Positions 3,719-48,664 of a stretch of 64,000 nucleotides of DNA are shown one piece after another (positions within the stretch are counted from its first letter, which is position 1; each line of letters opens with the position of its first letter). Under the pieces are notes generated by a model, which saw only the letters and a list, made by a program, of their open reading frames with translations, was not told where the DNA came from and searched no databases. The position numbers and the translations under genes were made by a program. The stretch is taken from positions 1-64,000 of IMG/VR virus record IMGVR_UViG_3300037089_000505; one strand, written 5' to 3'. Source of the DNA: a virus.

Positions 3719-4367
3719 ATCCAACGGCAACATGTATGATTGGGTGACACACATGTGGTCTCCTTTTACCGGTTGCCCGCATCAATGCTCCTATTGCTAT
3801 GTGAAAAATGCCTGGCGAGATTTGCCAGAAAAGACTACTCTTCAAGAGCCCTTCCCAAATCTTGGTTCTGGCAAGACAATTTTCATCGGGCATCTTTGTG
3901 ACATGTTTGCCGAAGGCGTTGACTCTACCGATGTAATGAAGGTGATAGAGTATTGCCGAATGTGGGATAATGAATACGTCTTCCAAACAAAGAACCCACA
4001 AAACATGTGGAAGTTTATCTACAGGACGCCCTCCAAGAGAATGGTCGGAACTACTATTGAAACAAATAGGGCAGAAACACTTGAGAGGTTTTCTAAAGCA
4101 CCGCATCCCATGGAAAGAGCGAATGGGCTTAGTCAGATTGACGGCAAGAAGTTTTTAACCATTGAGCCAATCATGGACTTCGATGTTTGGGAGTTTGCTA
4201 AATTGATTGAAGCGGCGAAACCAGACTTCGTCAATATTGGAGCTGACTCCAAGAGACACAATCTGCCAGAACCTACTGGTGAAAAGGTCATGGCCTTAGT
4301 AGGGACTCTTGGTGAGCTCAAGATTCCAATTCGCAAGAAGGTCAACATAGAGAGGCTTTTGAAATGA
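3705..4367 (+). CDS. Gp37/Gp68 (DUF5131)-like radical SAM-type protein
   Basis: WSPFTGCPHQCSYCY CxxxCxxC motif, DMF, FQTKNP, TIEPI, IGADS; start moved to ATG 3705 (RBS aagga). Confidence 0.75.
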   Translation: MKLSRSNGNMYDWVTHMWSPFTGCPHQCSYCYVKNAWRDLPEKTTLQEPFPNLGSGKTIFIGHLCDMFAEGVDSTDVMKVIEYCRMWDNEYVFQTKNPQNMWKFIYRTPSKRMVGTTIETNRAETLERFSKAPHPMERANGLSQIDGKKFLTIEPIMDFDVWEFAKLIEAAKPDFVNIGADSKRHNLPEPTGEKVMALVGTLGELKIPIRKKVNIERLLK

Positions 4368-7866: not shown

Positions 7867-8153
7867 GCATCAAAAAAGTCAAATTCAACCAATTATATCG
7901 TTTGTGGATCCGAGGCCCTAATAGTTCTTATTGCATAGTCAGATTTGTAGGTCGAAAAGACTTAAGCGAAGAAGTTATTTATTCTATTGAAAGAGCTGAC
8001 TTGTGGACGACACCCAAAAGAGTTTATGTCATGCGGGTCAGTCAAGGTAATTTTGAAGATCACTGGTTTCAAAGTCTGACGGAAGTTAAGACTGAAAAAG
8101 AAAAGACGCTCATCGCCCTTAAAACAGGTTTGTCTGAAAAGATAATTCTATAA
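7863..8153 (+). CDS. Hypothetical protein, C-terminal KEKT-helix motif
   Basis: Ends KEKTLIALKTGLSEKIIL. Confidence 0.6.
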   Translation: MSIKKVKFNQLYRLWIRGPNSSYCIVRFVGRKDLSEEVIYSIERADLWTTPKRVYVMRVSQGNFEDHWFQSLTEVKTEKEKTLIALKTGLSEKIIL

Positions 8154-8374
8154 TGATGATATTTTTTAGCAAAGAACTCAAAGGTAAAAGATACGTAGAT
8201 TGGTATATTCCATTACCTAAGGGTAAATATTTTAAGGTGACAGTTGGTCTATATAAGGAATATTTAGACACGAGAACAGTTGAAGAGCCACCTTATAGTC
8301 CAATACGAATTGCTAAAAAAGAAGATTTGCAATCTTGCATTAAGTCTATATTTGAGGCAAGGATGATATTATGA
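8153..8374 (+). CDS. Small protein, C-terminal hIKxhF family
   Basis: Ends LQSCIKSIFEARMIL; AAGATAA at 8139-8145. Confidence 0.6.
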   Translation: MMIFFSKELKGKRYVDWYIPLPKGKYFKVTVGLYKEYLDTRTVEEPPYSPIRIAKKEDLQSCIKSIFEARMIL

Positions 8375-15269: not shown

Positions 15270-16397
15270 TTATTCTTCTTCAGGTTCGGGCTGCCAAGGT
15301 AGATTCTTTATTATGCTATGATTTTGCTTTGGATCAAAACCTTTAGTAGGTGAGTATTTAATTTCTATCTCGTCGTCATAGCCGCCTTGCCCTTCTGGCG
15401 TATAAAAAGAGCACGAGAAATAACCGTTGTGATAATCAATACCGCCATCCATAATTTGTGGTATTATCCATTTTACTTCATCAACTTGAGGATCATACTT
15501 CATTAAGCCCGATCTTTCTTTACCGTAGGCCTCTTGAAGATTAAAGAAATAACCAGCAGCACCTAAGTTGTCGATATTTATATAGTTTTTCTTGCTTAGG
15601 GGTATTATCCATTTTTGAGTTTTAACGTTATAAACACCCTGTTTGTCACCATCGGTCATCGTGAAAAGATTATATTTTTCTAATCGCTCTACATCGTCAT
15701 ATTTAAATGGAAGAACTATTTTACCCGTTAAACTCATTATACCCGTATAGCCATTAGCATCAATTAATTCAAACCAAGTATCAAAAAAGTTTTTAGGATT
15801 CTTGTCTCTTATATAGCTTATATCACTATAAAGACCGAAAGGAATAGTCATAGCATTTGTAGATTTATTGTATACGCCGTTTTGACCTTTGTGATTTTCT
15901 ACATAGATAAATGGATCAAACCAATTTACTTTTCTAACCCAAACTTCATCGGCGTGTGATTTGAAATTTTTGTCGAATACTTCTTTAACGTCCTTCTTGT
16001 TTTTGAACCACCAACCGCCTACTGGTTTAGTAGTCTTTCCAAATTGTCTATACACAAACGGTAGAATCGTTTTACCAGTAACCGAATCTAGGACGCCAAT
16101 ATTGTCGTTTTGGTCTTCAGCAATTAAATATTTAGGGCCTGCGTCTTCATGAATTTCGTCGTATTTGATTAGGGTTAATTTTTTTCCCTGAGGCGAAAAA
16201 AGACCCCATCTATGATTTCTTCGACATAAAAAATAACGACTTGGATATTTAGATTTCCACTCTGCAAACGTATTGTCTAATACAGTTTGCTTTCCTTCCC
16301 TATTACGAAGACCAAATTCGCCCTCTTTTTGGAATGGCTGAACGCCGTATTTATTAGGTTCTCCGAAATATTTGATTGCTTCTAATAGTGTTGTCAT
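15270..16397 (-). CDS. WG-repeat (beta-repeat) protein
   Basis: Repeats G-h-h-x-x-x-G-K-x-I-h-P-F-x-Y-D; start ATG 16397 (MTTLLEAIK). Confidence 0.7.
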   Translation of the reverse strand: MTTLLEAIKYFGEPNKYGVQPFQKEGEFGLRNREGKQTVLDNTFAEWKSKYPSRYFLCRRNHRWGLFSPQGKKLTLIKYDEIHEDAGPKYLIAEDQNDNIGVLDSVTGKTILPFVYRQFGKTTKPVGGWWFKNKKDVKEVFDKNFKSHADEVWVRKVNWFDPFIYVENHKGQNGVYNKSTNAMTIPFGLYSDISYIRDKNPKNFFDTWFELIDANGYTGIMSLTGKIVLPFKYDDVERLEKYNLFTMTDGDKQGVYNVKTQKWIIPLSKKNYINIDNLGAAGYFFNLQEAYGKERSGLMKYDPQVDEVKWIIPQIMDGGIDYHNGYFSCSFYTPEGQGGYDDEIEIKYSPTKGFDPKQNHSIIKNLPWQPEPEEE

Positions 16398-16711
16398 CTT
16401 TTGAAACTCCATACAGTGTATTCAAATATTATCTTTATCAGTTTCTTAGCTCTATTCTTGAGGTTATTCCAAATCCGTGGATCGTCTGACATTTTTATAA
16501 CTCGACCGTATCTAAAAGGTAAGTATTGGTCCGATAGTCTACGAAGCGGCTGGTTGCTATTAAGCGTCTTGGTATCTAGTAAATCTATTATGATCACAAT
16601 TCCAGAGCCCCAATCTTTTTCGTCATAACCCAAATAGAGCCAAATAGATTCAGGATGATGCGCAACTTTCCCACCCTTCCAATATATGATATCAAATGGC
16701 TTAAACTTCAT
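16394..16711 (-). CDS. Small protein, C-terminal hIKxhF family
   Basis: Ends AKKLIKIIFEYTVWSFKR. Confidence 0.6.
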   Translation of the reverse strand: MKFKPFDIIYWKGGKVAHHPESIWLYLGYDEKDWGSGIVIIIDLLDTKTLNSNQPLRRLSDQYLPFRYGRVIKMSDDPRIWNNLKNRAKKLIKIIFEYTVWSFKR

Positions 16712-17657: not shown

Positions 17658-17834
17658 ATGACCGCCACTAAAGAGCAAATCATAAATCTAATAATAGGAT
17701 GCGATAAATGCGGCCATCGAGGCACTTCAAAAACTGATGTTTGCAATCCGCCATATAGTGGTAAATGGCGCCCAATTACTAATTTGGGTTGTGAAAATTA
17801 TTTGGCGCCAAGTGATTGGCATAAGTCTAAATAG
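17658..17834 (+). CDS. Cys4 miniprotein
   Basis: MTATKEQIINLIIGCDKC...VC...WRPITNLGCENY; CATATT 7 nt upstream. Confidence 0.65.
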   Translation: MTATKEQIINLIIGCDKCGHRGTSKTDVCNPPYSGKWRPITNLGCENYLAPSDWHKSK

Positions 17835-18099
17835 TTTCCTTCTTATTAAACGCCCGCCTGATTATGATTTGCTTTGCCCGCCACAAACTGAAATGAGTAG
17901 GAAAGTCGCTAGCATAATAAAAATCGAGACTGTCGGTATCACCATAATTACGACGCCAAAAAATCCTTGGTCTGTGGCGTTCTTCAAATGACAAAAACCA
18001 AACCTTCTTAGGCGACTTTTTTACTACTATAAGCAAGTCATTATATGTGCCCAAAATAGTTCCAATTTTTAGATCTTCAAAATCGTATTGGTCAGCCAT
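17827..18099 (-). CDS. Small protein, C-terminal hIKxhF family
   Basis: MADQYDFEDLKIG... ends AKQIIIRRAFNKKETI; AAGATAA 4 nt upstream. Confidence 0.6.
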   Translation of the reverse strand: MADQYDFEDLKIGTILGTYNDLLIVVKKSPKKVWFLSFEERHRPRIFWRRNYGDTDSLDFYYASDFPTHFSLWRAKQIIIRRAFNKKETI

Positions 18100-18124
18100 A
18101 AAGTTATCTTGCATATTTTAGTAT

Positions 18125-18283
18125 ATGGACAAATGCGAAGTCATCATCTTACTAAAAGCTTCTTGTGAGACTTGTGTTAAGCGATGGCCACATCATTCTT
18201 TTTGCAAAAGAGACTATAATAATGTATGGTGGCCTATCACGAATTATGGATGTGAACATTGGGAAAGAGTCTATTCCCTTTAG
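18125..18283 (+). CDS. Cys4 miniprotein (not in ORF track)
   Basis: MDKCEVIILLKASCETC...FC...WWPITNYGCEHW; paralog of 17658..17834. Confidence 0.6.
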   Translation: MDKCEVIILLKASCETCVKRWPHHSFCKRDYNNVWWPITNYGCEHWERVYSL

Positions 18284-18806
18284 CTAAATTGTCTTTACGC
18301 CATAAGGGCTGAAGGTTAGCTAAAGACCAACACTGCTTAAACTCAGGATCATTAGCGTCAGAATACTCCCACCAAGATTCTGGTATTTTGTGATCGATGT
18401 GCCATTTACCATAATTATCCCAAGACATTCCTGGTGTCCACAAATTTTCCAGATGCCGCTTTAATTCTTCTACCGTCCAATTAACTAACGTCTCCCACTT
18501 ACGACCCTTTTTATTTCCTCTTAACGACTTACGAATTGCGCTACTCAAGTTCTTTTCAAGTTGGTATTGAGGTTCAGAACGGCGAGCTTTCTTGTATTCA
18601 CGCTGGTATTTTCTGAATCTAGGCTCATTCCGATAAGTTTCAAAATAAATATTTCGGGCTGTTCTGTGTTCAGCTGATTTATTGTGTGCTCTTCTCTTAG
18701 CTTTCCTATGAGGTTGATTTTTACGAGCTCCCCATTTGATTCTATATTCTAACGTTTGTCGGTAAAGATGACGCGCTAAGACTTTTTCTTCTGGTGTTCT
18801 TTTCAT
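18237..18806 (-). CDS. HNH homing endonuclease
   Basis: GMSWDNYGKWHIDHKIP...NLQPLWRKDNLAKG; basic N-terminus. Confidence 0.85.
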   Translation of the reverse strand: MKRTPEEKVLARHLYRQTLEYRIKWGARKNQPHRKAKRRAHNKSAEHRTARNIYFETYRNEPRFRKYQREYKKARRSEPQYQLEKNLSSAIRKSLRGNKKGRKWETLVNWTVEELKRHLENLWTPGMSWDNYGKWHIDHKIPESWWEYSDANDPEFKQCWSLANLQPLWRKDNLAKGNRLFPNVHIHNS

Positions 18807-18841: not shown

Positions 18842-19546
18842 ATGGCTTACAACGCTATCAAAAATTTCATCATGGGAAGAATGGGTTATCCCAGAGTTAA
18901 AGTTTATATTACAGAAGAGCAGCTGGATGATTGCATCTGGGAAGCTATGAGCTATTACTTTGAATATAGGGATGATATAATCCGTGAGAGTTATATTTCA
19001 GGAACGGCATATGTCGGCGAATATACACTTCCTCCAACTATCGTTCCAAAATATATACATAACGTAATCTTTAAACCGACAGACCCCCTGTTCAGTTTAA
19101 CAGGAGTAATGCAAGACGTCTATCTGTTGTATTATTTACAGAACGCAGGCGGCGCCGCAAACTTCATCGTAGACTATTGGATGACGCTGTCCAACTATAA
19201 GGAATATGAACGTGTATTAGGAAACCAACCGCACTGGGATATAATTAATGGCAACGTCTTGAAATTAGACCCCACACCGTCTATTGACTTCCAAATTGGA
19301 ATTAGATATATGGCTTTACCCGACGAGACTACTATTGAAAACACAAGGTGGATTAGACTCTTCGCTTTAGCTTGTGCAAAATCTGTAGAAGGTGAAATTC
19401 GAGAAAAGTTTTCTACGCTTCAAGCTGGTAGTGGCGAGATTAGTCTAAATGGAGCAGCACTTAAAGCTGAAGGTGAAGTAGAAAAACAAAGACTCTGGGA
19501 TGAGAACTTTTCAAAACAGCTCCCGCTGGGTATGTTATTTGGTTGA
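18842..19546 (+). CDS. gp13: Neck protein, T4 gp13-like
   Basis: MGYPRVKVYITEEQLDDCI, WIRLFALA, SLNGAALKAEG; RBS GGAGG; AAGATAA at 18818. Confidence 0.8.
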   Translation: MAYNAIKNFIMGRMGYPRVKVYITEEQLDDCIWEAMSYYFEYRDDIIRESYISGTAYVGEYTLPPTIVPKYIHNVIFKPTDPLFSLTGVMQDVYLLYYLQNAGGAANFIVDYWMTLSNYKEYERVLGNQPHWDIINGNVLKLDPTPSIDFQIGIRYMALPDETTIENTRWIRLFALACAKSVEGEIREKFSTLQAGSGEISLNGAALKAEGEVEKQRLWDENFSKQLPLGMLFG

Positions 19547-19629: not shown

Positions 19630-20451
19630 ATGTTTTGTAAAATATGTGGGAAAGAATTTCCTAACAAAAAAACTCGGCGGGGCCCCAAAAAATATTGCTC
19701 TGTACAATGTACGAATAAGGATCGCAAAAACATTGGAAGCAGAAAACCAGGTAGATATAAAAAAGTTTTAGTTGAGCGCCATCATACTTGTATTTATTGT
19801 AAGAAAGACTTTTCTAATAGACGAAAGAAAGCTAAATACTGCTCTAAGCGATGTAGCGAGTTGGGCTGGAAAAAAAATAAACGCTCCTGCCCAATTTGTG
19901 GTAAGTCTGTAGTACGTAAACACGGCGAATCAACAACTCACGACAACAAACAAATTTATTGTAGTGTAGAATGTCGAGGTATCGCCGAACGAAAACCAAG
20001 ACCTAACTGTTTAATCTGTGGCGGTGAATGTAAACACTGGTATAGTAGAACTTGCTCTATGAATTGTCAAGCTGAATTCAAGCGCATATTCCACTTACTA
20101 CGAATTAAGAAGGCTTTGGCCATCGGCGTCCAGTTAAATCCCTTCTACAACTTAGACGCTTGCAAATGGTTTGAGCAGTATGATAAAGACAACAACACGA
20201 TCGGTAAATACGCAACTAATGGTGGCGAAGAGTTTGTAAAAGGCTATTGGCTTGATTATATCAATCATGACAAAAAGCTAATTATCGAATGGAACGAGAA
20301 GCAGCACTACAACAAAGATGGATCTCTTAGAAAAAGAGATATAAGAAAAAGAGACGACATTCTAAAGTCTTTTCCAGCCTACGAGTTCTGGTCTATCAAA
20401 GAAGACACAATGCAAATCGACAAGATAATTCTTAATGGCGTGGTTAGTTAA
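19630..20451 (+). CDS. Putative homing endonuclease: Zn-finger repeats plus PD-(D/E)xK-type domain
   Basis: Four CxxC...YCSxxC repeats; YWLDYINHDKKLIIEWNEKQH. Confidence 0.7.
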   Translation: MFCKICGKEFPNKKTRRGPKKYCSVQCTNKDRKNIGSRKPGRYKKVLVERHHTCIYCKKDFSNRRKKAKYCSKRCSELGWKKNKRSCPICGKSVVRKHGESTTHDNKQIYCSVECRGIAERKPRPNCLICGGECKHWYSRTCSMNCQAEFKRIFHLLRIKKALAIGVQLNPFYNLDACKWFEQYDKDNNTIGKYATNGGEEFVKGYWLDYINHDKKLIIEWNEKQHYNKDGSLRKRDIRKRDDILKSFPAYEFWSIKEDTMQIDKIILNGVVS

Positions 20452-21249
20452 TGACTCTGACGGATATTATATACTCTACAAAACAGCAGGAGCCAAATCC
20501 GTCGCAGAAAGATATGATATTGCACCCGGTTATTTTTCAAAGAAACTAGTAAGCCCAAATACAATTTTTGAAACTGAGGGACTAAGACCCATCCACCGCT
20601 ATGATATTATAAAATTGGTTTGGAGTAAAGTGTGAAAATTAGATTTTTCAAATGGTATGAGAGAGAACACGGCGAATTACCAGGGATAGCGCTTGGAACA
20701 ATAAAAGACTATGCTATTAACAACGTATTTTCAAAAGATCCTAACTCATCTGATATACTTGCAATATGGTATAAAGATGGCAAATGGCGTCGAGGCGATA
20801 CATGGGCGTGGGGCGCTGTAGTTCCAAATCTCACTCGTGAATTAAATATGAATTTTAACTTAGTTAAGCGGCCGTCTAAATTAGACTATATAGATTTTAG
20901 ATCGGCAATTAAGAAATTGTTTAACAAAGAATATTTGCTTAGAAAATGAAAATTAGAGATATTTTTAGGTAAAAGAATGACACTCAAAAAATGGCGTTGG
21001 TATAAAACGCTCAATATGTATATCATGCCTACAAAAATAGTTAAAGCAAAGGGCACAGAGTATTTTGACTACTTTGAATATAACGATGAAAAGGAACGAT
21101 TGAGATATTTCGTAAATATACCTGATGATCAATTTTATGGTATAGATAACAGAGATTTTTTTGGTCGTTGGAAATTAACCACTAAAATTCAACATAAAAT
21201 GATAAAGACAGCATTTAGACCGAAGACGCACTATTAAGCGGAGGACACA

Positions 21250-21561
21250 ATGGAACTAGGTAATTTATTCAGAATGTTAGGCGAAGAACTAAATGAGGCT
21301 TTGGCCCCACAAGTTCACATGGCCAGACGGCGAGCAATGAAATCACAACTGGAAACAGATAAGCCAGGGACTGAAAGTGAAAGCAATGGACAATGGCAAT
21401 ACACTTCTTCGCAAGGTATAAAAGTCACAGAGCTAAAAGATGACACCTGGGAAGTTGAATTTGAGGGTAAAAAAGAAAAAGGTGATTTTGAAACTATCCT
21501 CAAGAAGGCAAAGGCAGCCTCTAAACTACACTATAGTCGAAGAGAATCCAAACTAAGCTAA
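21250..21561 (+). CDS. Small protein with Glu-containing leader (possible internal head protein)
   Basis: MELGNLFRMLGEELNEA; strong RBS ggagga. Confidence 0.6.
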   Translation: MELGNLFRMLGEELNEALAPQVHMARRRAMKSQLETDKPGTESESNGQWQYTSSQGIKVTELKDDTWEVEFEGKKEKGDFETILKKAKAASKLHYSRRESKLS

Positions 21562-24105
21562 ATGTATTTTCGTTATAAGTTGTGGATTAATACGCAAGGT
21601 CAAAAGTGAACGTAGAAAAATATCAAGTTGGTAAGTGGTATGCAACTGATAGTGCGCTCTCCATCCAAACAGGACTTCCATCAGGCAATGGTTTTTATTG
21701 GATTTTAATAGGAAATGGGCGTCATGTAGTCATAGATGCTCGTAAAATAAACATAACCTCTAACCCTCAATTGTATGGGGCAAAACTTACTAAATATAAT
21801 AGGCTACTAACTATTGCTGAGGCGTCTGCAGCGAGTAAGGAATTTGTTAAGCGTTTGTTTAAAGAAGAGTTAATTAAGATATGAAATTCGAGCATCCATA
21901 TAAACAATATTTGGGTAAGCTGATAATCAACCCAGATAAAAATTGGTATTATCCGACGCGAATTTTAGCAACTCAAGGTACTATTAAAAAAGAAGGCGGT
22001 AAAGATTTTATTAGATTTTTCGGAATCAACGATAGAGCTTTAGCCACATTCCCAAATGTGGCCGCCCCAAGAGTTTTTAGCTTAGCTAAAGAATGGGCAA
22101 CTACAAAAGTGATGCCCATTACAGAGTCTTATTATCACCTTATATTAAAATCTGCTTTCAATAAGGATAATAGTAAATGGCTATAAAGTACCATGCATGG
22201 GTTTGGACTAGTAAGAATTGGAAAGATAGTTTCAGGATAGATAAGGTTGAACATCTATACACTAAAAAGGGAACGGCCTATATAAAACTACTAGAGTTAA
22301 TTAAGACAAACACTAAAGAGTTTCCTTTCTCAAGTCCAGGTTATGGAGTAATCAGCACAGAAGAAGTATCACCTAATCGCTTGTTCAAAACATTAGATGA
22401 GGCGCGACACCTTGTTATAAGAGAAATAATTCCATGACAGAACCACTAAAGTTCAAAAAACCATTCGAACAATATGTGGGTCGAACTCTTGTAGATATAG
22501 AAGCAGCCCATGGTAAAATCTATCTAGTCAAATATCTATCTAAGAAAGATCCCAGTAACTTAGATAGAAAAGGCTATTTAGGTGTAGGCTATAATTCTGA
22601 AATAGAAATAAGAGAGTTTTGGTTTCATGATGGCCTGTATTATTTAAAACCGATTAGCTATGACAATAAAAAAGAAGTAGTGAGAGCAATTTTCAATGAA
22701 GCTGAATGAATTTATAAAAGTCTCATCATTTTCTAAGTTCCCTGAGGCTAAAAAAAGATATAGGCCGGGTAATGTTATATTTTGGAAACAGAAGCCCGAT
22801 TTCTATAATTGGTATATTGTTAAAGACGTGGACGAACTTAGTATAAATGGTGTGTATATATCGATAAGTATACCCGGAGGACCATCTTCAGAAACGATTC
22901 CACTTTTCAAAGACGATACTGCATTAGAGTCAATTGGTGAAGATGTAAAAGTTGTAAATAAACATCATCTAATTAAGGGTTTGTTTGGGGATATAAAATG
23001 AACTTCAAAGATGTAAGACCCGGACAAATTTTCGAATACAATATGGTTTATAATACTGAGCATTTATTGATATTGAGTAAAGAAAAAAATAAGCTGGGCA
23101 TAACTATCGTCAACTGTGTTTCTGAAGCGGATGGTACTTTTGAGTTTTTCGACCTAGATAAAGATAGATGGTCAAAAGAGAACTACGAATTAATAGTAAA
23201 CATAGAAGAGCTGAGAGAAAGAAGAAGAGATTTCATATACAACAGTTTTGAACAAAGAGATGAAGTTTAGTAAATGGTAGGTTTACAAAAATTGAAATAC
23301 TATGTAAATTTTTGGGGCGGGGATGAGTGGCAGGGCGTGTGGGATAAAGAGGTTCCAACAGATAGTTTTTGTATAGATAAAATTAGCTCGCGTTACTTTA
23401 GCGAATTTAGTTCTAATGTAGAAATAGTAGAACACGTAGTATATTATGCTACAAGAAATACAGATTCGCCAACTAACGAAGTTGGTGATAAAGTTGCTAT
23501 CCGCAACAAGGATCCAAACTTGTTTGATAGTTTAGAAGACGCTAAACACCACGTCATAAGAGTATTCCTCAAATGACAAAATACGGTGTCTGGTTTGAAA
23601 ATGATACGCTCAATCAATTTTGCATAGACGAATTAGAAGTAGACCCAAAATATAACTCATATAACTTTCAAGGAATTTTCATTAGAAACATATTGGAAAC
23701 TAAACGTATGAAGGAAAACTCAGATCGACCAAAGAAAGGATCAAAAATGGGCTGGGAAAATTATATGAATCTATTTAAGTCAGTAGGAGAGGCAAAGGCT
23801 TTTCTTATCAAAAAGGCTTTTAGAAATGATATTTAAAAAACCGTATTCACAATACAGTGGTAAGTGGTATAAGAGGACTGATGTAGAAGAAGATATTGTC
23901 TATTATATAGTAAGCGGCTATGAAGCGAAGGGTCATATATCAGATTGGCCACGACCCTGGAGAATGGTAGTATTAACAAAAGGCCAAGATTATTACTCGT
24001 CTAAAATGACTGTACATATATCACAAAAAGATTTACGCAAATATAATCCGGAAACAAATGATAAGGCAAGAGTACTAAAAACAATATTCGGGGAAGGTTG
24101 GAGAA

Positions 24106-24645
24106 GTGGATAATAAGAGATCATTAAGAAGAATACCCGCACCTGGAGCTGATGTAAAAAAAATTTTACAACACTTGAAATCTCAGGGAGTTGTTCGAAC
24201 AAACTCTAAAGATGGTGATGCAGCAGCTGAGCAATTGATCAAAGATGGTTACATAAGCGATGAGAATATAGTAACTAGAACAGATCAATTTACCTTACTA
24301 ACTAATTTGATTCATGATGCAAAAATATTAGAAGTAACTAAGCTGATAGACACTGTCCCTAAACACAAAATAGACGATTGGCTTTGGAAACTCGACAGAT
24401 ACAAATACAGGAAATACCCGGCCACATCTATAGCCATAGAAAAGCTAAAAGATAGGAAAGTAGACAAGTTTGCCAAGCTAATTACTTTAATAAGAAATAG
24501 AAGAGAATTGGATATGACAGGCCTAATAGATACAATCCGACGCCAAGAGATAGGTGCTTGGATTGAGAGACTAGAAAAAGGATACAATAGTCTACCTTAT
24601 ACAGCAGTTGCTATTGCAAAATTGAAAAACAGAAGAGGATTCTAA
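24106..24645 (+). CDS. Helical protein with an internal tandem duplication
   Basis: Two ~58-aa repeats F..LI.LI...LIDT.....I..W...L.....P.T..AI.KLK.R. Confidence 0.7.
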   Translation: MDNKRSLRRIPAPGADVKKILQHLKSQGVVRTNSKDGDAAAEQLIKDGYISDENIVTRTDQFTLLTNLIHDAKILEVTKLIDTVPKHKIDDWLWKLDRYKYRKYPATSIAIEKLKDRKVDKFAKLITLIRNRRELDMTGLIDTIRRQEIGAWIERLEKGYNSLPYTAVAIAKLKNRRGF

Positions 24646-24886
24646 GTGGGCAAGATTTTTTATGAGCCACCAACAAATAATTACTTTGAAGCTTGGGACC
24701 TTTACAAAAACAATAACAAAGATATACTAAGAATTGCATATGACCCAGAATCGGATAATTTAGATGCTTTAACTCTTCAAGGCGATGCAGAAGAAGAGCC
24801 GGCTAAACCAGCCACTGAGGCACAGCTACAAAAACTTATAAGAATGATCTTTAATGTAAAAAGTATATATAGGGAGCGGGAAGAAG

Positions 24887-25114
24887 ATGAGTAATAACAT
24901 GTATGATATTTTGAACGAGTGGGAAGAATTTACAACAGTGAGTGGTAAAATTCCCCATAAACATGGTTACAAAGTAGATGATAAAGGTGATGGTAAAACT
25001 ACCAACACAATTAGTGAAGGTGAAAAAAAATCACCCAAACATATTCATGAAATAAAAATGTGGAAGGCATTAGCTGTGGGTGGCGATAACCACACTCATC
25101 AAATAAAAATATGA
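24887..25114 (+). CDS. His-motif (HxH repeat) small protein
   Basis: HKH, HIH and HTH motifs. Confidence 0.6.
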   Translation: MSNNMYDILNEWEEFTTVSGKIPHKHGYKVDDKGDGKTTNTISEGEKKSPKHIHEIKMWKALAVGGDNHTHQIKI

Positions 25115-26138
25115 CGATGTATTACTACAGCAAAGACCAACCCGGAAAGTATGTAGAACTAACTTGGGTAATGTATAAACCTAATGGAAGTTCTTTGTGG
25201 GTAAGAGTTAACTACGCGACCTACAATTTAGTTTATACTTGGGTGAATGTGTCTACTGAAAAGCCTGATATGGACAAGATGACTGAAATTGAAGCCAGAA
25301 AACTAATGAAACTGATATTTAAGATTAAAAAATTAAAGCAGCGGGAAATCAAGAAATATGAAAGTTGAAGGTAAGTGGTATACACATGAATCAACTAATG
25401 CAATAGCCTTTGCAATAGGTCCAATAAGTTTAATGACTGTAGGTCGCCGATCAATATGGATTTCTGCAATGCAGGAAGATTTTTATAAAGTATGGACCCA
25501 AATTCCTTGGGATAAATCTGGAAGTAAGTATAGTCATCATTTAATTAAGAAAACATTCATAGCAAAGATAATTATATGAACTTTGAAGAAATTAGAGCCG
25601 GTCAAATTATTGAGCACAATAAAACTTATTATACAGAGTGGTTGTTCGTATTAGAAAGAAAAAAGAATTTGATTTGGACTTTGAAAGATACAGGTGATGA
25701 CATAATAGAACGTGTAATAATTAGTAAATTAGTTTGGGATGAAGATCATAGAAGTGATGAAATTTTGGGTAATAAAGAAGAAGCCAGCGAAAGAAGAAAA
25801 GACTATATCGTTTTTATGTGGAATAGTCGACTATGAATTATGAGGGTAAGTGGTATTCTAATTTACTAGGTAAGCCAGAAGAACTATCTTTTGTATTAAG
25901 GGCCGTTCCTGGTAAGGCGCAACCTCACCCGCCGAACGCGGCGCTAAAGAAGATTGGATCAATTTAGAAATGTTATATCTTACTAGAAAATATGTAGCGA
26001 TAACAAAACAGGTAATCGTTGAAAAATTTCTATTGAGACCATTAAAGGGCTATGAAATTGATCGGCCCAAGCAGATGCTCATAATCAAGCTTTTCAACAA
26101 ACTAGAATTGAATAGAATGTATTTTTAATGGAGAAAAT

Positions 26139-26861
26139 ATGAAGCTATGTAGGACCTGCAACAAAGAGTTACCGAAAAACAGAAAACTCTATTGCTCTAA
26201 TAACTGCAAACGGCATGAGCGCAAAGAGTTATTATGTAAAGTCTGTGGTAAATCTATTCCCATAAAAAGAAAACGAAGAACAACTTTTTGTTCTGAGGAA
26301 TGTCATCAAAAATCTTGTAGAGGCCCTGGCAATCCCATGTATGGTAAGGCAAGCGCTATGAAAGGGAAACCTGGTGCAATGCTTGGCAAGAAACATAAAA
26401 TTAGCACTATTGATAAAATGAGTTTAACGCGCAAAAAACAATGGAGTGATGCTGAATTTAGAAAAGTTATGATAGATAAATTAGCAAAGGGTAGGGGCAA
26501 CTCTAGACCAGAGTTAAAAGTTAAAGAAATTTTAGATAATTTGGGTATAACCTATAAAAGAGAAAAGCTTGAGAAAAAGTATCTATATGATTTTTACATT
26601 CCAATTAAAAATATATACATAGAAGTTAATGGCGATTTTTGGCACGCCAATCCTAACAAATACATGGCTGACTCTGAGTTGTCCTTTCCGGGCTACGGTA
26701 AAATAAAAGCTAAACACCTTTGGGACAAAGATAAAAAGAAAAGAGAATATGTAGAAGGTTTAGGCGCCAAGTATGTTTGCATTTGGGAATCAGAGTTGAA
26801 AGACAAAGATGCGAACATACTATTAACAGAGAGGTTAAATCATGCCGGATTTTCCATTTGA
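26139..26861 (+). CDS. Putative homing endonuclease (Zn fingers, NUMOD3-like, Vsr/DUF559-like nuclease)
   Basis: CxxC/YCS repeats, GKKHKISTIDKMS, YDFYIP...IEVNGDFWH...IWE. Confidence 0.8.
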   Translation: MKLCRTCNKELPKNRKLYCSNNCKRHERKELLCKVCGKSIPIKRKRRTTFCSEECHQKSCRGPGNPMYGKASAMKGKPGAMLGKKHKISTIDKMSLTRKKQWSDAEFRKVMIDKLAKGRGNSRPELKVKEILDNLGITYKREKLEKKYLYDFYIPIKNIYIEVNGDFWHANPNKYMADSELSFPGYGKIKAKHLWDKDKKKREYVEGLGAKYVCIWESELKDKDANILLTERLNHAGFSI

Positions 26862-27390
26862 ACTATATGACCCAGAGAATAATTTTGAATTAGAGTTATT
26901 TGATCTTGTGGATCAGGAAAGAATGGCAATTCAAGGTTCACCTCTTTTTATTTGGGCATTTGATTTAGCAGCAACTAGGCTATCTAACGACGAAGCAGAA
27001 ATTGGGATTCCTGATGAGGGCTTAGATTTGAATACTTTATACGGCGAAGCTTTACCCGAGCACATGGTTTTCCACGGACCTTTTGGTCCCATCAAAGGCG
27101 CTTATATAACTCCTACGTGGACACAAGATTTAATGGCGTTCGGTATTACAGAGCCAGAGGAGATAAACATAAAATTCAACAAGAATCAACTCATCACATT
27201 ACTAGGTCGACCTTTCATCCGCGGTGATGTCCTTAGAACTTTCCATTTGAAGTATTATATAGTAGAAGACACTTATGTAACAGAAGAAACAGTCTTGTGG
27301 AACTACATTCACTTGAATGTCATAGCTAGAAAAGTAGATCAGACGCAATTGAATCTAACTTCGGTTCCGTCCAATGCAGCAGCAGAATAA
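26842..27390 (+). CDS. gp14: Neck/head completion protein, T4 gp14-like
   Basis: E.MAIQG, LYGEA...F, FGI...EEI.I.F, P.RGDVL; position between gp13 and gp15. Confidence 0.7.
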   Translation: MPDFPFELYDPENNFELELFDLVDQERMAIQGSPLFIWAFDLAATRLSNDEAEIGIPDEGLDLNTLYGEALPEHMVFHGPFGPIKGAYITPTWTQDLMAFGITEPEEINIKFNKNQLITLLGRPFIRGDVLRTFHLKYYIVEDTYVTEETVLWNYIHLNVIARKVDQTQLNLTSVPSNAAAE

Positions 27391-27683
27391 TGTTTAAAAT
27401 ATATTGCAGTAGAAGTAAAAGTGGCAGCTTCAGGTGGGCCTATTTGACGAAACGTGTTAATACAAAAGAAGGTTATTACATCAGCTATTTAGCTATCGAA
27501 GGTCCTTTGGTTAAAGCTTCTTTTACTGATATTAATCGGCCCGACCGCTGGAACAGCTGGAATCAAAATCACTTTGAAGATATGTTTGCTCGGCCAGATG
27601 CTTACGGCGGCAGCCTAGAACAGTTGGATATGAAGGATGAAAAGACATTGAAACGCATCGTAAAGAAAATTTGGAAAAAATAA
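27390..27683 (+). CDS. Small protein, C-terminal hIKxhF family
   Basis: Ends TLKRIVKKIWKK. Confidence 0.55.
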   Translation: MFKIYCSRSKSGSFRWAYLTKRVNTKEGYYISYLAIEGPLVKASFTDINRPDRWNSWNQNHFEDMFARPDAYGGSLEQLDMKDEKTLKRIVKKIWKK

Positions 27684-28153
27684 TGGAATACGAAATTAAA
27701 GTAAGACTCACTGGCAAAGCGGATGATTACACAAAACTCAAGCGTAATTTGGGTGAAGCAGTAAATAAGAAAATCTTGCCAGACGTACAAGAATTCTTAA
27801 CTGGGGCTCTACTTTATAGAAACATGAGAGGATTGGGGACTGGCTCAAAAACTAAACCGTTAGATGAATTCAGAGCACAACATGCAGGACTAATTACCTT
27901 GGGGATTCTAGATCATGTGAATAAAAAATATATTGATTTTGGTGATACTCCAGGTGGACAGCCAAAATCTAGCGCAACAGTTACTAAAGGTGGAAGCTCT
28001 CTAATAGTAGATTTCAAATTCACATTAAAAGATTTATCGCCTGACAAAATTGGCATTTCCATTACTCCCCAAAGCATAGTGGCTAAAACATTCAATCCAA
28101 CGTTTATCAACGATATATTTAAGAAAGCCGCCGCAGGCTTGAAAGATAAATAA
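27683..28153 (+). CDS. Hypothetical protein in the neck/tail operon
   Basis: TAATG overlap; located between gp14 and gp15. Confidence 0.6.
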   Translation: MEYEIKVRLTGKADDYTKLKRNLGEAVNKKILPDVQEFLTGALLYRNMRGLGTGSKTKPLDEFRAQHAGLITLGILDHVNKKYIDFGDTPGGQPKSSATVTKGGSSLIVDFKFTLKDLSPDKIGISITPQSIVAKTFNPTFINDIFKKAAAGLKDK

Positions 28154-28154
28154 T

Positions 28155-28913
28155 ATGCAACTTGATTACCCTATTTTTGCTGAATATCACTACTGGCTAA
28201 AGAAGTGGTTTCAATGTTTATTGACATTGCCAAGATTAGATACGCTAAGTATAAAAATTCCCGTAGTATATGCAACTTCGCGGCGCGCATTTGCTTTAGG
28301 CGGATCTGAGCTAGAAGTTGGCAACGAAGGTAAACCGCCTTTGTACGCGCCACCAAATCAGGGCAATAACTGGCTTCCTATTTTAGCTTTTCACATGACT
28401 GGTATGACTCCCGTATTAGGAAAATTTATACCATATGAGCACATTTTATATAGAGCTACTACAAACCCCCCATATTCTTCTAACGGTCAAGTAACTGGTT
28501 ACACAAAACGAAAACCATATCTAACTTTTGAAACTACTTATATAGCTTCTTTATATTGTGCTCTAGTTCAAGATATGGATATTCTAACATGGAAAATAGT
28601 CACAGAATTTAAACCACAAGCTAACTTATGGATTGGTCCACCAGAAACAGTTGGGAATAGAAACGAAGGTGTCTATGCCCAGATGTTACTGGACTCTGTT
28701 ACTGACGCCACTGAATATGAACCGGGTGACATAGGAGAAAGAGTAGTTAGAAAAGATTTTGCTTGGAAGATTACAGAAGCTTATGTTCCTACTTCTATAA
28801 CTGTACTAGACGAGAATATAATAAAAGACGTTTTTATAGACACCTATTATACCGTTCCACCTACTGCTACACAAAGCGGCATTGAGATCGATGTTAACGT
28901 CCCAAAGGGCTGA
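28155..28913 (+). CDS. gp15: Tail terminator / sheath stabilizer, T4 gp15-like
   Basis: IKIPVVYA...LPILAFHMTG; upstream of the sheath gene; AAGATAA 5 nt upstream. Confidence 0.65.
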   Translation: MQLDYPIFAEYHYWLKKWFQCLLTLPRLDTLSIKIPVVYATSRRAFALGGSELEVGNEGKPPLYAPPNQGNNWLPILAFHMTGMTPVLGKFIPYEHILYRATTNPPYSSNGQVTGYTKRKPYLTFETTYIASLYCALVQDMDILTWKIVTEFKPQANLWIGPPETVGNRNEGVYAQMLLDSVTDATEYEPGDIGERVVRKDFAWKITEAYVPTSITVLDENIIKDVFIDTYYTVPPTATQSGIEIDVNVPKG

Positions 28914-29191: not shown

Positions 29192-32065
29192 ATGGCAAAT
29201 AATTTGCTTTCACCTGGCGTTGCGGTACAAATAATAGATCAAACGACTACAACAGCTCCTATACAAGGTACAGTCGCAGCTGTAGTTGGTTTCGCTGATA
29301 AAGGGCCAGTCAATGTGCCGACATTTGTGCCAGACTTAAATACGTTCACAACTACTTTTGGTAACTCTATACCAGCTTATCCTTATATGGCTATGTTCGC
29401 CTCAAAATTCTTGACGGTGTCTACGGCCTACTTCACAAGAATTGCTCATGAAGTTGAATTCAATTCAATTCAAGGCACTGCAGCACCATCACTGAATTTT
29501 GTAACTGTAAGCCCTGCGGCATTTTGGGTAGACATATCGGGATTACCTATACTTGCCAACAATGGTATATATAGAGTTTTTTGGACAGCTAACGTTGTAT
29601 ACTCTACTATTACAGCTTTAGTAGCAGCTATAAATACAGCCTTCGCAGCAACAAAATTAGCAGACAATGTAACATTTTTGAGTAGCTATTTAACAGCGAC
29701 GACAGATATTACTAATACATTTATTGTTATTGAGTCAACAGCGCTAAATATCAATTTTACTCTTAGACAAGATGGATGGCCCATTGCTTCTATAACTAAC
29801 GTTCTTAAAACTACACCTCCAGGAAGTCTTGGATTTGCGGACGGAGCTAGTACAACTACCAATAGCGATATCTTGGCCTATGCATTAGTAAGAGTACCAG
29901 TAAGTGATGTAGCAGCTACGAACGCTAGCATAACTAGTCCTACGGCGATTTCAGCTCAGAATCTTAATAAGATCAATGCTTTCCCCTACATCGATATTGC
30001 ATATGATGGTGATTCAACTCCTATAACGTTGCCACCTTCAGCGGCCCCAAATCCACCATTCTCAAACACTGTAGTAAGTTTAAGCACCAGCTTAAACATA
30101 GTACCTACAAACGGACAACAAGGAGCCTTCGCTATATTGGGAGCGCTTGCTGCACCAGCAACTTTCAACTGGACGGGCGTACCTGTTACTGGCCCAAATA
30201 TTGCTATTACGCTACAAGGATTCTATAACTTTAACTCGACCGATACAACAACTGAAGTTAATGCGACTTTCACGATTTTCCCTAGTATAAGTTTTATTGC
30301 TGGCACAACGCCTATCTCACAATTAATCATTGCTTTAAACGCAGCTTTACTAGCAACGACTTCAGGTACTGGTGGAGCTTTTACTGGTGGATCTAGCTTA
30401 CAAACATATATTCAATTTTCTACAGTTAACGGCTTCCTATCAATAGGAGCTGGTACAGGGCCCTTATTCAACTTGGGTTCACAATGCTCTGTAGCTATAG
30501 CTGATGGTACAGGCGGAGGATTAATATCAAATCTAGGTTATAACGCTGTTAGCGTACCGCCAAATAATATAGCATTTGGAGTAGATGCTACTTGGACACT
30601 AAGTGATGTGGCTAACAAAATAAACTCTGTTGCAGCTTCTAATAGATTAACTATATTTGCTTCAGCTTCTAACGGATTCCTAAGTATAAGTAGCGACAGA
30701 CTTGGATATACTAGCTTCATACAAATACTAAGTCCATCAAACGTAGTTTTATTTCCAAGTGCCGTACAAACGGTATTGAATTTCGTCCCTACTACAAAAG
30801 CTTTTGGAGTTACAGAAAGCGATTCTGGAGTCTTTAACTTCGTCGCTTTAACGCCTGGAACTGACGGCAACAAAATATCAGTACTGACATACACTAATGT
30901 CAACCCAGTTACTCTAGTCACACAATACTATTTACAGGTATTTTACAATGGCGTCAGCAGAGAAGTTTGGGGTCCAATAAACTGGACTACTTCAACTGAT
31001 CCACAGTTCATTAATACTGTGATCAAGAACTCAGCTTATATAACTGTAGACTTTGGTGAAATAAGTCAGTTTCCAAATCCTATAACTAATCCAGTTCCTA
31101 CACAAGCACCACCCAATGGAACATATAGACTAACTGGTGGTAATAACGGCATACCAGCTGGTGGCGTAATATCTGAATCAGATACTAGTATAGCTGACTC
31201 ATTGGCTATAGTAGCCATAGACGCTTATAACAATCCAGAGGTATACGTAATAGATTTGGCTTTAGCTCCTGGATTTGTAAGTCCTCCAGTCACTTCGGCT
31301 TTACAAGCTTTGGGTGAGGCTAGACAAGATATTCTATGCTTAGTAGATCCACCTGCTTTCTTGAGCTATACTGATATAGTCAACTGGCACAACGGTCTAT
31401 TGAATGGGTCAGTAGATCTAACTTCGAAGTATACGGTAGTAGTTTGGGATTGGCAGAAGGACTTTGACACATTTAATTCTGAATATGTCAACTTACCGCC
31501 TTCAATTTATGAAGCTACAATTATTGCTTCTACCCAAAAGGGCTTTAATCTATGGGAAGCTCCAGCAGGTCCAGTAAGAGGAGTAATCAATTCTATCTCT
31601 TCATATTCTCAACCAACACAGGCTCAAAGAGATGTATTATACAACGACACAGTGCCATCTTGTGTTAACCCAATAGTTCAGTTTCCGTCACAGGGTATAA
31701 TGGTTTATGGTCAAAAGACTACCTATAGAGTGAGCTCAGAACTTACAAGAATTAACGTAGTAAGAACTGTAAACTATGTAAGAAGAAACGTCTCGGCTAT
31801 CGCTAGCAATTATCTATTTGCCCTAGACCAAGCTTCTACATGGGCGGCAATTACACGAGACTTAAATGCGTTTTTAGCTAACGTACAACAGAGAGGTGGT
31901 ATTCAAGCATTCAACGTAATATTTGACAATACTACTAACACACCAAATTTGATATCTCAGAACATAATGTATGGAAAGATCTTTATACAGCCTACTACAG
32001 TAGCTGAACGAATTTATATTGATTTGACTATCCAAAACGCTGGGGCAACAGTAACAGTAGGTTAA
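29192..32065 (+). CDS. gp18: Contractile tail sheath protein, T4 gp18-like
   Basis: LLSPGVAVQIID, GFADKGPVNVP, WEAPAGPVRG, VNPIVQFP, YGQKT, RINVVR. Confidence 0.95.
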   Translation: MANNLLSPGVAVQIIDQTTTTAPIQGTVAAVVGFADKGPVNVPTFVPDLNTFTTTFGNSIPAYPYMAMFASKFLTVSTAYFTRIAHEVEFNSIQGTAAPSLNFVTVSPAAFWVDISGLPILANNGIYRVFWTANVVYSTITALVAAINTAFAATKLADNVTFLSSYLTATTDITNTFIVIESTALNINFTLRQDGWPIASITNVLKTTPPGSLGFADGASTTTNSDILAYALVRVPVSDVAATNASITSPTAISAQNLNKINAFPYIDIAYDGDSTPITLPPSAAPNPPFSNTVVSLSTSLNIVPTNGQQGAFAILGALAAPATFNWTGVPVTGPNIAITLQGFYNFNSTDTTTEVNATFTIFPSISFIAGTTPISQLIIALNAALLATTSGTGGAFTGGSSLQTYIQFSTVNGFLSIGAGTGPLFNLGSQCSVAIADGTGGGLISNLGYNAVSVPPNNIAFGVDATWTLSDVANKINSVAASNRLTIFASASNGFLSISSDRLGYTSFIQILSPSNVVLFPSAVQTVLNFVPTTKAFGVTESDSGVFNFVALTPGTDGNKISVLTYTNVNPVTLVTQYYLQVFYNGVSREVWGPINWTTSTDPQFINTVIKNSAYITVDFGEISQFPNPITNPVPTQAPPNGTYRLTGGNNGIPAGGVISESDTSIADSLAIVAIDAYNNPEVYVIDLALAPGFVSPPVTSALQALGEARQDILCLVDPPAFLSYTDIVNWHNGLLNGSVDLTSKYTVVVWDWQKDFDTFNSEYVNLPPSIYEATIIASTQKGFNLWEAPAGPVRGVINSISSYSQPTQAQRDVLYNDTVPSCVNPIVQFPSQGIMVYGQKTTYRVSSELTRINVVRTVNYVRRNVSAIASNYLFALDQASTWAAITRDLNAFLANVQQRGGIQAFNVIFDNTTNTPNLISQNIMYGKIFIQPTTVAERIYIDLTIQNAGATVTVG

Positions 32066-37075: not shown

Positions 37076-38258
37076 TATACTATGATCTGGAGTAAAGATA
37101 ACTATATGAGCACAGAAAAAAACCCCATCAGCAAGACATGCGTCATTAATGACCCGCTGATTAATACTGTTCAGAATTTGCTATCCACTGGATGGCGCAA
37201 GAAAGAGGATCGTGTTTTCTACAAAGGTAGGAACACTTATATTATAGAGTTGAATGGTAATTACCATCCAATGTGGGGAATTGAGATCACACCCATTAAT
37301 GATGGTTTTGATCCAAACGATTGGAAGCTGCGAAAAGATTTAAACAGCCTAAAGAACTTGGGCCACGTTACCGACAAGAGGCTTTATCTTAACGACGGCA
37401 ACAAAGAAGAAATATCACATATGATTGCTGCATTACAACAGAATCGTTTTAATTTAATCTACGACAATTCCTATGTAGTATTTAGAGCAGCGCCTAATCG
37501 TGTGAGAATCTTTAAAATTGCCGCTACGATGGATTTAGTCGAACAGCCAGACGGCTGGTATGTTGGAGAGAAAAAGATATTATGAAGATAGGAAAATATG
37601 TGGGACGAAGTTTCTGTTTGGGAAAATGAGGGTGGTTTTAATCGCGAGATTGAAAATCATGGCTCGAAAGAATTAAAAAAGCTTCTAAAAACATTTGAAA
37701 AAATGACACCAGAAGAATATAGAATTTTGCATCAAAAAGCTTGTGAGCTCGAAAAAGAGGACCCGAGTCCAAAAATAATATGAATCTAAAAATAGGATCC
37801 CGTATATTTCTAAAGAAAGCATTCATTGAAAGAATAGTTAAAACCGGCGATATGTCTGGTAGCTCGTTGGCATTTGGCATAGTGGCAATCACAGATTATG
37901 CCATAAACTTAAAGAATTTACGAACTGGAAAGCTATACACTATTCCTCTAAGTGAAATGCAAGGCAACGTAGATGAGTCAGCTGACTTACAACAACCACG
38001 ACCAATAGCGACTCCAAAAGAAAAGACTGAAGTAGTAACACTAAATTCGACAATCAAAATTGAAACACCAACAAAGCCAAAGAAAGATTTTACATATGAA
38101 GCTACTGCTACTTTACATTTTCCTGCCGCTACTGCAAATGTCGTTATATTAAAGACCGGCGACCCATTTGCCTATTTATATGAGAGCTAAGACAAACAGC
38201 ATATATCATACAATATATTAGTGTGATTAAAGCATTAAAAACGTAAGGAGTAAAAACA

Positions 38259-48367: not shown

Positions 48368-48382
48368 AGTCAAGATAATTTC

Positions 48383-48664
48383 ATGGTTAAGCTTGGCCGC
48401 TGGTACAAAGACGAATACAATGAATATACAATGCCTCTCGTTGTTGATATACTGAAAGATAAACTAACTGCTATTATTTCTTTACCAGATACTAGAAACT
48501 CAGACTCTGAAAAACTTAATTACATTTTAACAGATAGATACACCGACACCTTCGGCCTAATGATAGGTGAGATGCCAAAACTACAATCTAAAAGTTTCTC
48601 TAGAAAATTGCCCAGAAAGACAATGCGAAAGGCACTCAAAGCTATATTTACGGGGAAAGCGTAA
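48383..48664 (+). CDS. Small protein, C-terminal hIKxhF family
   Basis: MVKLGRWY... ends MRKALKAIFTGKA; AAGATAA 4 nt upstream. Confidence 0.6.
   Translation: MVKLGRWYKDEYNEYTMPLVVDILKDKLTAIISLPDTRNSDSEKLNYILTDRYTDTFGLMIGEMPKLQSKSFSRKLPRKTMRKALKAIFTGKA

Follow-up and report, generated by a model that had tools for sequence, protein, structure and literature searches.

The 64,000 nucleotides analysed here (the window) correspond to the first 64 kb of a contig of 143,947 bp, IMG/VR virus record IMGVR_UViG_3300037089_000505, whose sequence places it in a very distant, uncultured T4-like myophage. Between a gp13-like gene and the gene found at the position of gp14, this phage carries a block of 21 small open reading frames (ORFs) in the same direction (20435-26128), or 20 genes once the halves of a frameshifted one are merged. 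In 17 of these 20 array genes, the encoded protein terminates in an h-[IV]-[KR]-x-h-F helix (h, hydrophobic residue). The explanation that we prefer, with a probability of just under one half (about 0.48), is that the array results from a lineage-specific birth-and-death expansion of one scaffold, a small barrel plus a helix, in a hyperplastic hotspot flanked by homing-endonuclease genes. A preliminary description of this DNA had reported a diversified family of small proteins sharing one C-terminal helix and filling the gap between neck genes that are normally adjacent; this family is real. About 35 members are encoded by the whole contig, of which they occupy roughly 6% of 144 kb.

The shared C-terminal helix

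The helix was searched for as a strict pattern, [ILVMF][ILVM][KR]x[ILVMAFT][FW] within the last 25 residues, an in-place shuffle of those 25 residues serving as control. Eleven of the 20 array ORFs contain it (0.18 ± 0.41 expected from the shuffles), as do 26 of the 804 small ORFs of the whole contig (5.98 ± 2.43 expected) and none of the 148 ORFs longer than 130 amino acids (aa). All the proteins that bear the helix are 60-110 aa long. Four more array ORFs end in degenerate versions of the motif (VIREII, VIRVFL, FIYNSF and YIVFMW). Strict and degenerate versions together reach the "about 17" array ORFs to which the preliminary description had attributed a shared ending, the 13 endings that it quoted are all present in the ORFs concerned, and the enrichment over shuffled ends bears the claim out. 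Furthermore, a weight matrix trained solely on the helices of related phages gave at least 8 bits to 13 genes of the contig, for 0.9 expected.

The codons of the motif vary synonymously from one member to another (ATA/ATT/ATC, AAA/AAG/AGA/CGG and TTT/TTC). Therefore, it is a peptide that is conserved and not a ribosome-binding sequence, and a repeat at the DNA level was ruled out as the source of the motif. Within this peptide, beta-branched Ile and Phe are specifically preferred over other hydrophobic residues, the Lys/Arg is nearly invariant and basic residues flank the motif at positions -3 to -1 and +6/+7. The helix 12-mer has a mean hydrophobic moment of 0.41, versus 0.45 for the MinD peptide, and a mean net charge of +1.7. 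Between the motif and the C-terminus lie 0 to 42 residues, depending on the member. At the other end of the protein, about half of the members share a strand of the type [KNQRE]-W/F-aromatic. The two motifs co-occur (19/40 versus 31/276, odds ratio 7.2, p=3e-7), with the reservation that the pattern was chosen post hoc and that the sequences are not independent.

Sub-families and family identity

Within the array, BLASTP joined only two pairs of proteins. Several sub-families could nevertheless be delineated when sequences of relatives were included: A (22177, 23274 and 23573, named here by their first position), which starts with K-Y-Y-G-W and ends with LFxSLxEAKxxVIRxxF; B (25358 and the frameshifted gene 25833-26128), with a GKW[FY]SNxxGxP start; C (21881, 22434 and 23826), with a KP[YF]xQYxG start; D (22998 and 25576), related to a group E found only in relatives; and F (24646, 25111 and a member at contig position 126194). 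Sub-family A helices conserve a capping box and, upstream of it, L-F/E-A positions. Conservation in the sub-family B alignment is highest at N-terminal G5, W7 and G13 and at Ile74 of the helix. Sub-families D and E begin with a barrel-like h-x-x-G-D/Q-h-h-Y pattern, and one member gave a weak hit to WYL_2 (Sm-like SH3).

Full-length profile-profile comparison (hhalign) of these sub-families, whose profiles are shallow, linked B to B2 (96%) and D to E (74-84%), all other pairs being below 8%. In these other pairs, the best local match usually consists of the last 10-20 residues. The bodies of the proteins had been described as divergent: this stands for most sub-families, which profiles do not link, but must be qualified since sub-families do exist and about half of the members share the N-terminal strand. 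The helix is kept by all 17 cluster representatives of sub-family A and by all 31 sequences of sub-family B, with no body lacking it.

None of the 21 array ORFs, 31 pooled members and 7 members from relatives or dispersed loci reached curated cut-offs against Pfam-A, PHROGs v4, NCBIfam or PDB sequences, the best curated-family results being at noise level (E 0.007-0.09). This agrees with the earlier statement that no named family matches. A mixed hidden Markov model of the whole family, iterated over the ORFs of the contig and its relatives, added only two sequences, and used as a database query it retrieved 2 proteins only, itself and one with 6% coverage. The sub-family A profile retrieved only 17 cluster representatives among 1.84 billion, and the sub-family B profile found 23 clusters among 5.8 billion, all unnamed or hypothetical. 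No sub-family B protein was found in representative bacterial genomes. Scans of viral contigs revealed no close relative of 23573 and, with the sub-family B profile, no contig beyond the related set already identified.

Predicted structure

An AlphaFold2 model of sub-family B (31 sequences) reached a predicted local distance difference test score (pLDDT) of 83.8 and a predicted template modelling score (pTM) of 0.70. It comprises a short strand (7-9), three long strands (18-26, 31-39 and 44-53), a short helix (62-65) and the motif helix (68-79, pLDDT about 75). This model suggests an SH3/Tudor-like small barrel followed by a helix, the claim being limited to the architecture. Barrels of the SH3/Tudor/KOW type consist of five strongly bent antiparallel strands over about 60 residues. 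The helix presumably packs on the barrel, and one fold may be common to all sub-families. Small beta-barrels capped by a C-terminal helix are also found in chromo-domain and Sso7d-type folds.

With VIA-align, the best match of the model was HspQ (5ycq_A, Z 5.4, root-mean-square deviation 2.8 Å over 67 residues), covering model residues 1-74 and thus running into the helix; SH3, EF-P domain I, Tudor (UvrD/PcrA) and KOW (NusG/Spt5) domains came next (Z 4-5.3). HspQ/YccV has the same order of elements, a helix-capped small barrel, but shows no sequence similarity, and its Z-score is below the noise mark of the tool; the resemblance is therefore architectural only. Foldseek found nothing at E<=0.001 in PDB and BFVD. 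Prediction of a sub-family B homodimer scored 0.20, for a mark of 0.42, and speaks neither for nor against one.

Expansion in a hyperplastic hotspot

Fourteen related phage contigs bear further family members, and a contig of 310 kb encodes identical proteins. Both clusters of members on the present contig are flanked by endonuclease genes. In 12 relatives, the gp13-like gene and the gene at the gp14 position are separated by 0.7-3.8 kb, versus 7.3 kb here. Each of these gaps contains a different mix of members, usually with a protein ending in KYPG..AISKLKWRRGY (hereafter the KYPG protein) and sometimes with unrelated genes or an endonuclease gene at the same site. Since its length and gene content vary in this way between relatives, the gp13/gp14 gap behaves as a T4-type hyperplastic hotspot.

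Between phages, the ratio of non-synonymous to synonymous substitution rates (dN/dS) of family members is about 0.2-0.35, which indicates that the array ORFs are real genes. Between tandem copies within one phage it rises to 0.43-0.69; hence, selection is relaxed or diversifying after duplication. At the short distances sampled, constraint on the last 22 codons does not consistently exceed that on the body. In two relatives (L019 993-1723 and L013 2177-3052), single sub-families have recently been triplicated in tandem, the copies having dN/dS of 0.43-0.69, which shows the duplication process in action. Several relatives' gaps also contain, together with the KYPG protein and a sub-family B member, a four-cysteine zinc-ribbon protein of ~60 aa (CPxCG...CVKCKKKV; L006 3151-3345, L017 2325-2513, L019 1980-2168 and L020 1133-1309) that is absent from the gap of the window.

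Role of the helix and of the family

According to the scheme that we propose, the scaffold would be an SH3/Tudor/chromo-like beta-barrel of ~60 residues, opening with a strand of the G-K-W-Y type and closed by a basic amphipathic C-terminal helix of 12-18 residues ([ST]xxE cap ... h-[IV]-[KR]-x-h-F). The Ile and Phe of the helix and nearby hydrophobic residues would pack on the barrel, so that the helix would be retained while strands and loops would be free to diverge. The genes would multiply by tandem duplication in hyperplastic hotspots of the T4-like clade (the gp13/gp14 junction, other late-module junctions and the 116-120 kb island), with homing-endonuclease genes adjoining, and the copies would later diverge or decay, one copy being frameshifted here. 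The paralogues would be single-domain binders, each with a different target, a protein or nucleic acid of the host or the phage, acting as accessory host-takeover or counter-defence factors and not as address-labelled cargo. On this scheme, a diversified small-binder function is probable. A helix integral to the domain is favoured over a detachable label because it occurs only on 60-110-aa proteins, accompanies the body in all homologues of sub-families A and B that were sampled, is coupled to the N-terminal strand motif and sits, in sub-family B, in a compact modelled domain, where its Ile matches the N-terminal Gly and Trp in conservation.

Several observations weigh against this explanation. 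Once the helix is removed, profile-profile comparison links only B to B2 (91%) and D to E (84%), other pairs being below 5%, and a common fold across sub-families is therefore not demonstrated. Only sub-family B was modelled confidently: the AlphaFold2 model of sub-family A (8 sequences) has a pLDDT of 45 and is unusable, and the ESM Atlas models of 23573 and 23826 have pLDDT values of 0.62 and 0.48, the latter of low confidence, with best neighbours at template modelling scores of 0.50-0.51. The VIA-align Z-scores do not reach the level above which the tool sees more than a common arrangement. Finally, the nearly invariant Lys/Arg and the basic flanks, which packing does not need, hint at a common functional surface.

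The preliminary description had regarded the helix as a common docking or packaging tag. Such a portable tag would bring varied small payloads to one receptor (prohead or neck, for loading into the virion, a clamp or a host machine). Bodies that are not detectably related in most sub-families and yet align over their last 10-20 residues, Lys/Arg and Phe conserved beyond plain hydrophobicity, and co-directional genes that lie inside the late neck-tail module and are not separated by any convincing terminator would all fit a tag. It is difficult to reconcile, however, with the absence of the helix from the 148 larger ORFs, the lack of tag-less homologues of sub-families A and B, the coupling to the N-terminal strand, the location of the helix inside a compact modelled domain and its variable distance from the C-terminus; moreover, neither a processing-site pattern nor a candidate receptor was found. 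This part of the description is not upheld at present, and we consider a portable tag distinctly improbable. That the ~35 small barrel proteins are each recruited through the helix, used as a handle, to one receptor (virion interior or neck, membrane, or host machine) is also unlikely, although less so. The helix could otherwise be a membrane-targeting one of the MinD/FtsA kind, which would hold the small proteins against the cytoplasmic side of the cell membrane. The C-terminal membrane-targeting sequence of E. coli MinD ends in FLKRLF, which is identical to the core h-h-K-x-h-F; the hydrophobic moments are similar, and the positive net charge and basic flanks agree with this role. Unlike MinD-type sequences, the array helix is longer, has in sub-family A a capping box and the upstream L-F/E-A positions, specifically prefers Ile and Phe to other hydrophobic residues, and is modelled with a pLDDT of about 75 within a compact domain. 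Membrane targeting seems slightly less probable still than a tag.

About as improbable as the tag is a family of small nucleic-acid-binding proteins (Sso7d/chromo/KOW-like), in which basic helix and barrel together would form a DNA- or RNA-binding unit, with the paralogues as specific regulators. A strongly basic helix, whose charge reaches +5 or +6 in sub-family B, would suit this role, the structural neighbours are barrels associated with nucleic acids or RNA polymerase (EF-P domain I, NusG/Spt5 KOW, UvrD/PcrA Tudor, HspQ), and the zinc ribbons of Bacillus phage G provide a precedent (PMC7824862), but the Z-scores are generic and no sequence family matches. As for an artefact of AT-rich codon bias at gene ends, of translational-coupling needs or of non-coding ORFs, it can practically be dismissed: such an origin would agree with the AT-richness of the motif codons and with the overlap of most genes with the following start, but the in-place shuffles yield 0.18 occurrences for 11 observed, both the distance from motif to stop and the synonymous codons vary, and other contigs contain conserved homologues, whose dN/dS is 0.2-0.35.

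Comparison with known systems

Hyperplastic regions of T4-type phages contain variable small ORFs between core genes, with homing-endonuclease genes nearby (Arbiol et al. 2010, PMC2839356; Comeau et al. 2014, PMC4122927). The array likewise is a block of variable small ORFs between conserved core genes, in a gap of 0.7-7.3 kb among relatives, with homing endonucleases nearby. It differs by its location inside the late neck-tail module, by consisting largely of one motif-sharing family rather than of unrelated ORFans, and by the absence at its junctions of promoter-stem-loop (PeSL) cassettes, to which the shuffling of hyperplastic regions has been linked, 14 of the 21 overlapping the next gene and the largest spacer being 44 nt. 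Another expansion, of roughly 35 copies, is that of the zinc ribbons of Bacillus phage G, proposed to be specific regulators (Iyer et al. 2021, PMC7824862). Both cases involve tens of diverged copies of one tiny domain in one large phage genome. Unlike the zinc ribbons, the array scaffold would be a beta-barrel plus helix without metal ligands; the family belongs to a T4-like clade from peat and sediment metagenomes and is absent from Pfam, PHROGs and NCBIfam. A literature search on paralogue arrays in phages returned only unrelated papers.

The capsid targeting sequence of T4 (IPI-III, Alt) is N-terminal and is removed by the prohead protease. It resembles the array element as a short peptide common to otherwise different small phage proteins, but the latter is a C-terminal helix, lies at a variable distance from the end and has no cleavage pattern.

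Much of the DNA of large phages is taken up by tiny genes of unknown function. In this contig, about 35 such genes form one undescribed family with a recognisable signature. This signature, together with the sub-family alignments A2 and A6, allows such genes to be annotated in related metagenomic phages. If the proteins are diversified binders on a constant scaffold, the phage offers a natural collection of small inhibitors or regulators, in which the phage-host arms race can be read. If the helix is a common handle, it would be a new, undescribed modular system for addressing effectors.

Genomic context of the array

No near-identical phage record was found by a search at the DNA level. The gp13-like protein shows ~27% identity (tblastn) with annotated gp13 of Sinorhizobium phage phiM12, its closest cultured match, and of Aeromonas phage PX29, and 63-73% identity with its counterparts in 17 related metagenomic contigs. 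The claim that gp13 and gp14 lie about 7.3 kb apart is correct as to the distance (7,295 bp), for a gp14 that is putative. The protein at the gp14 position has no match in Pfam (including PF11649), PHROG or PDB, and hhalign gives it a probability of 0.3% against gp14 of phiM12; the protein at the gp15 position (28155-28913) has no match in Pfam, PHROG, PDB or phiM12. The gp14 and gp15 labels are thus given by synteny and position alone. Both proteins are conserved in the clade, without sequence match to a neck or sheath-stabiliser family, and are candidates for very divergent or replaced neck components. Since gp13, gp14 and gp15 are adjacent in phiM12, the split of the neck genes caused by the array is unusual.

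The zinc-finger endonuclease-like gene that precedes the array has a full homologue directly after the gp13-like gene in L013 (1334-2161), and a 45-aa C-terminal remnant of it occupies that site in L011 (10706-10843). This common position points to the 3' end of gp13 as a recurrent homing site.

The KYPG protein, of ~85 aa, is present in the gp13/gp14 gap of most fully sampled relatives, with 13 homologues (for example L001 10854-11120, L002 2540-2830 and L006 2891-3169). It has no confident family match, the copy of one relative giving a weak PHROG hit (E=0.002), and may be a true component of the neck module.

In the frameshifted sub-family B gene, residues 1-25 of the L009 homologue (3468-3728) match frame 1 and residues 29-78 match frame 3 (tblastn). 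The frameshift is placed between about 25910 and 25950; it could reflect a pseudogene, an assembly error or a recoding site.

Table 1. Coordinates of family members, flanking genes and start-associated motifs in the window.
Feature	Position	Strand	Remarks
Dispersed member, 73 aa, SCIKSIF	8153..8374	+	
Dispersed member, 105 aa, KLIKIIF	16394..16711	-	
Dispersed member, IIIRRAF	17827..18114	-	Likely start 18099, 4 nt after AAGATAA
EndoVII/HNH-like endonuclease gene, left flank	18237..18806	-	phrog_1035 endonuclease VII, E=4.5e-11
gp13-like head-tail adaptor Ad2	18842..19546	+	phrog_211, E=2.8e-14; alternative starts 18794, 18827
Zinc-finger homing-endonuclease-like gene	19630..20451	+	phrog_1271 HNH endonuclease, E=2e-15; 3' end overlaps first array gene
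Member, 66 aa, DIIKLVW end	20435..20635	+	AAGATAA 6 nt before ATG
Member, 105 aa, SAIKKLF end, N-terminal FKWYE	20632..20949	+	
Member, 86 aa, KMIKTAF end, N-terminal RWYK	20977..21237	+	13.8 bits, relatives-trained matrix
ORF without motif, 103 aa, possibly degenerate member (TILKKAKAASKLHY)	21250..21561	+	No family match
Member, 92 aa, EFVKRLF end, N-terminal GKWYA	21606..21884	+	
Sub-family C member, 101 aa, LILKSAF end	21881..22186	+	KP[YF]xQYxG start
Sub-family A member, 86 aa, degenerate LVIREII end	22177..22437	+	BLASTP to 23274, E=5e-5; 21.1 bits, relatives-trained matrix; alignment A2
Sub-family C member, 91 aa, EVVRAIF end	22434..22709	+	
Member, 101 aa, HLIKGLF end	22696..23001	+	Relatives-trained matrix
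Sub-family D member, 90 aa, RPGQIF start, degenerate DFIYNSF end	22998..23270	+	BLASTP to 25576, E=5e-9
Sub-family A member, 100 aa, HVIRVFL end	23274..23576	+	BLASTP, alignment A2, A profile
Sub-family A member, 87 aa, FLIKKAF end	23573..23836	+	Alignment A2
Sub-family C member, 95 aa, GKWYK, RVLKTIF end	23826..24113	+	
Non-member, tandemly duplicated KYPG protein, 179-aa ORF	24106..24645	+	Both halves match L001 10938-11117
Sub-family F member, 82 aa, KLIRMIF end	24646..24894	+	phmmer link to 25111
ORF without clear motif, 75 aa	24887..25114	+	
Sub-family F member, 85 aa, KLMKLIF end	25111..25368	+	phmmer link
Sub-family B member, 73 aa, GKWYT start, HLIKKTF end	25358..25579	+	B profile E=1.2e-7; alignment A6
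Sub-family D member, 86 aa, DYIVFMW end	25576..25836	+	BLASTP pair with 22998; AAGATAA 4 nt before ATG
Sub-family B gene split by frameshift, LIIKLF end	25833..26128	+	Two ORFs: 25833-25967, 25970-26128
Second zinc-finger homing-endonuclease-like gene, right flank	26139..26861	+	phrog_22677 (3.5e-15), phrog_559 HNH, phrog_3339 homing endonuclease; weak Vsr-like match
Conserved 182-aa protein, gp14 position	26842..27390	+	60-73% identical and syntenic in relatives
Dispersed member, 97 aa, RIVKKIW	27390..27683	+	Follows gp14-position gene; absent there in L001; 15.4 bits
Tail sheath	29192-32065		phrog_23, E=8e-56
Dispersed member, 93 aa, GRWYK start, ALKAIF end	48383..48664	+	
Longer AAGATAA motif (examples)	8139-8155, 18104-18099(-), 20422-20437, 25565-25578, 28143-28157, 37095-37108, 48372-48385		

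Expression signals

As previously described, AAGATAA lies 4-7 nt before the start of five members (8153, 18099 on the minus strand, 20435, 25576 and 48383). It is part of a longer CAAGATAAYTNN-ATG motif with 83 copies on the 144-kb contig, about 25 of which are at a fixed 4-7 nt before a start codon. The starts so preceded include those of the gp13-like gene, of the gene at the gp15 position and of the heads of small-gene runs. Because this spacing is fixed, a start-site signal accounts for the motif better than a promoter does; it is more likely to be a translation-start operator or a start of the leaderless type than a late promoter in the style of T4. The T4 late promoter octamer TATAAATA is not enriched (8 copies versus 4.9 expected) and is absent from the array. 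On the plus strand of the array, a single weak terminator-like hairpin was found, inside an ORF. The array genes are co-directional and tightly coupled with the neck module and, from this arrangement, would be expressed late.

Members outside the array

The five dispersed members of the window (8153, 16394 and 17827 on the minus strand, 27390 and 48383), already noticed in the preliminary description, are all real. A second island with at least 10 members lies at contig position 115904-120437 (L008 1904-6437), with an HNH endonuclease gene (118374-119000) in its middle, and the sub-family F member mentioned above is located further downstream (126194-126466; L008 12194-12466). In two members of this island, 119178 and 119434, the helix is internal and is followed by a common extension of 18-42 residues. 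Finally, in a 69-aa ORF at contig position 96641-96850, a helix of this type (TEQEANQLVRDLF) is N-terminal and not C-terminal.

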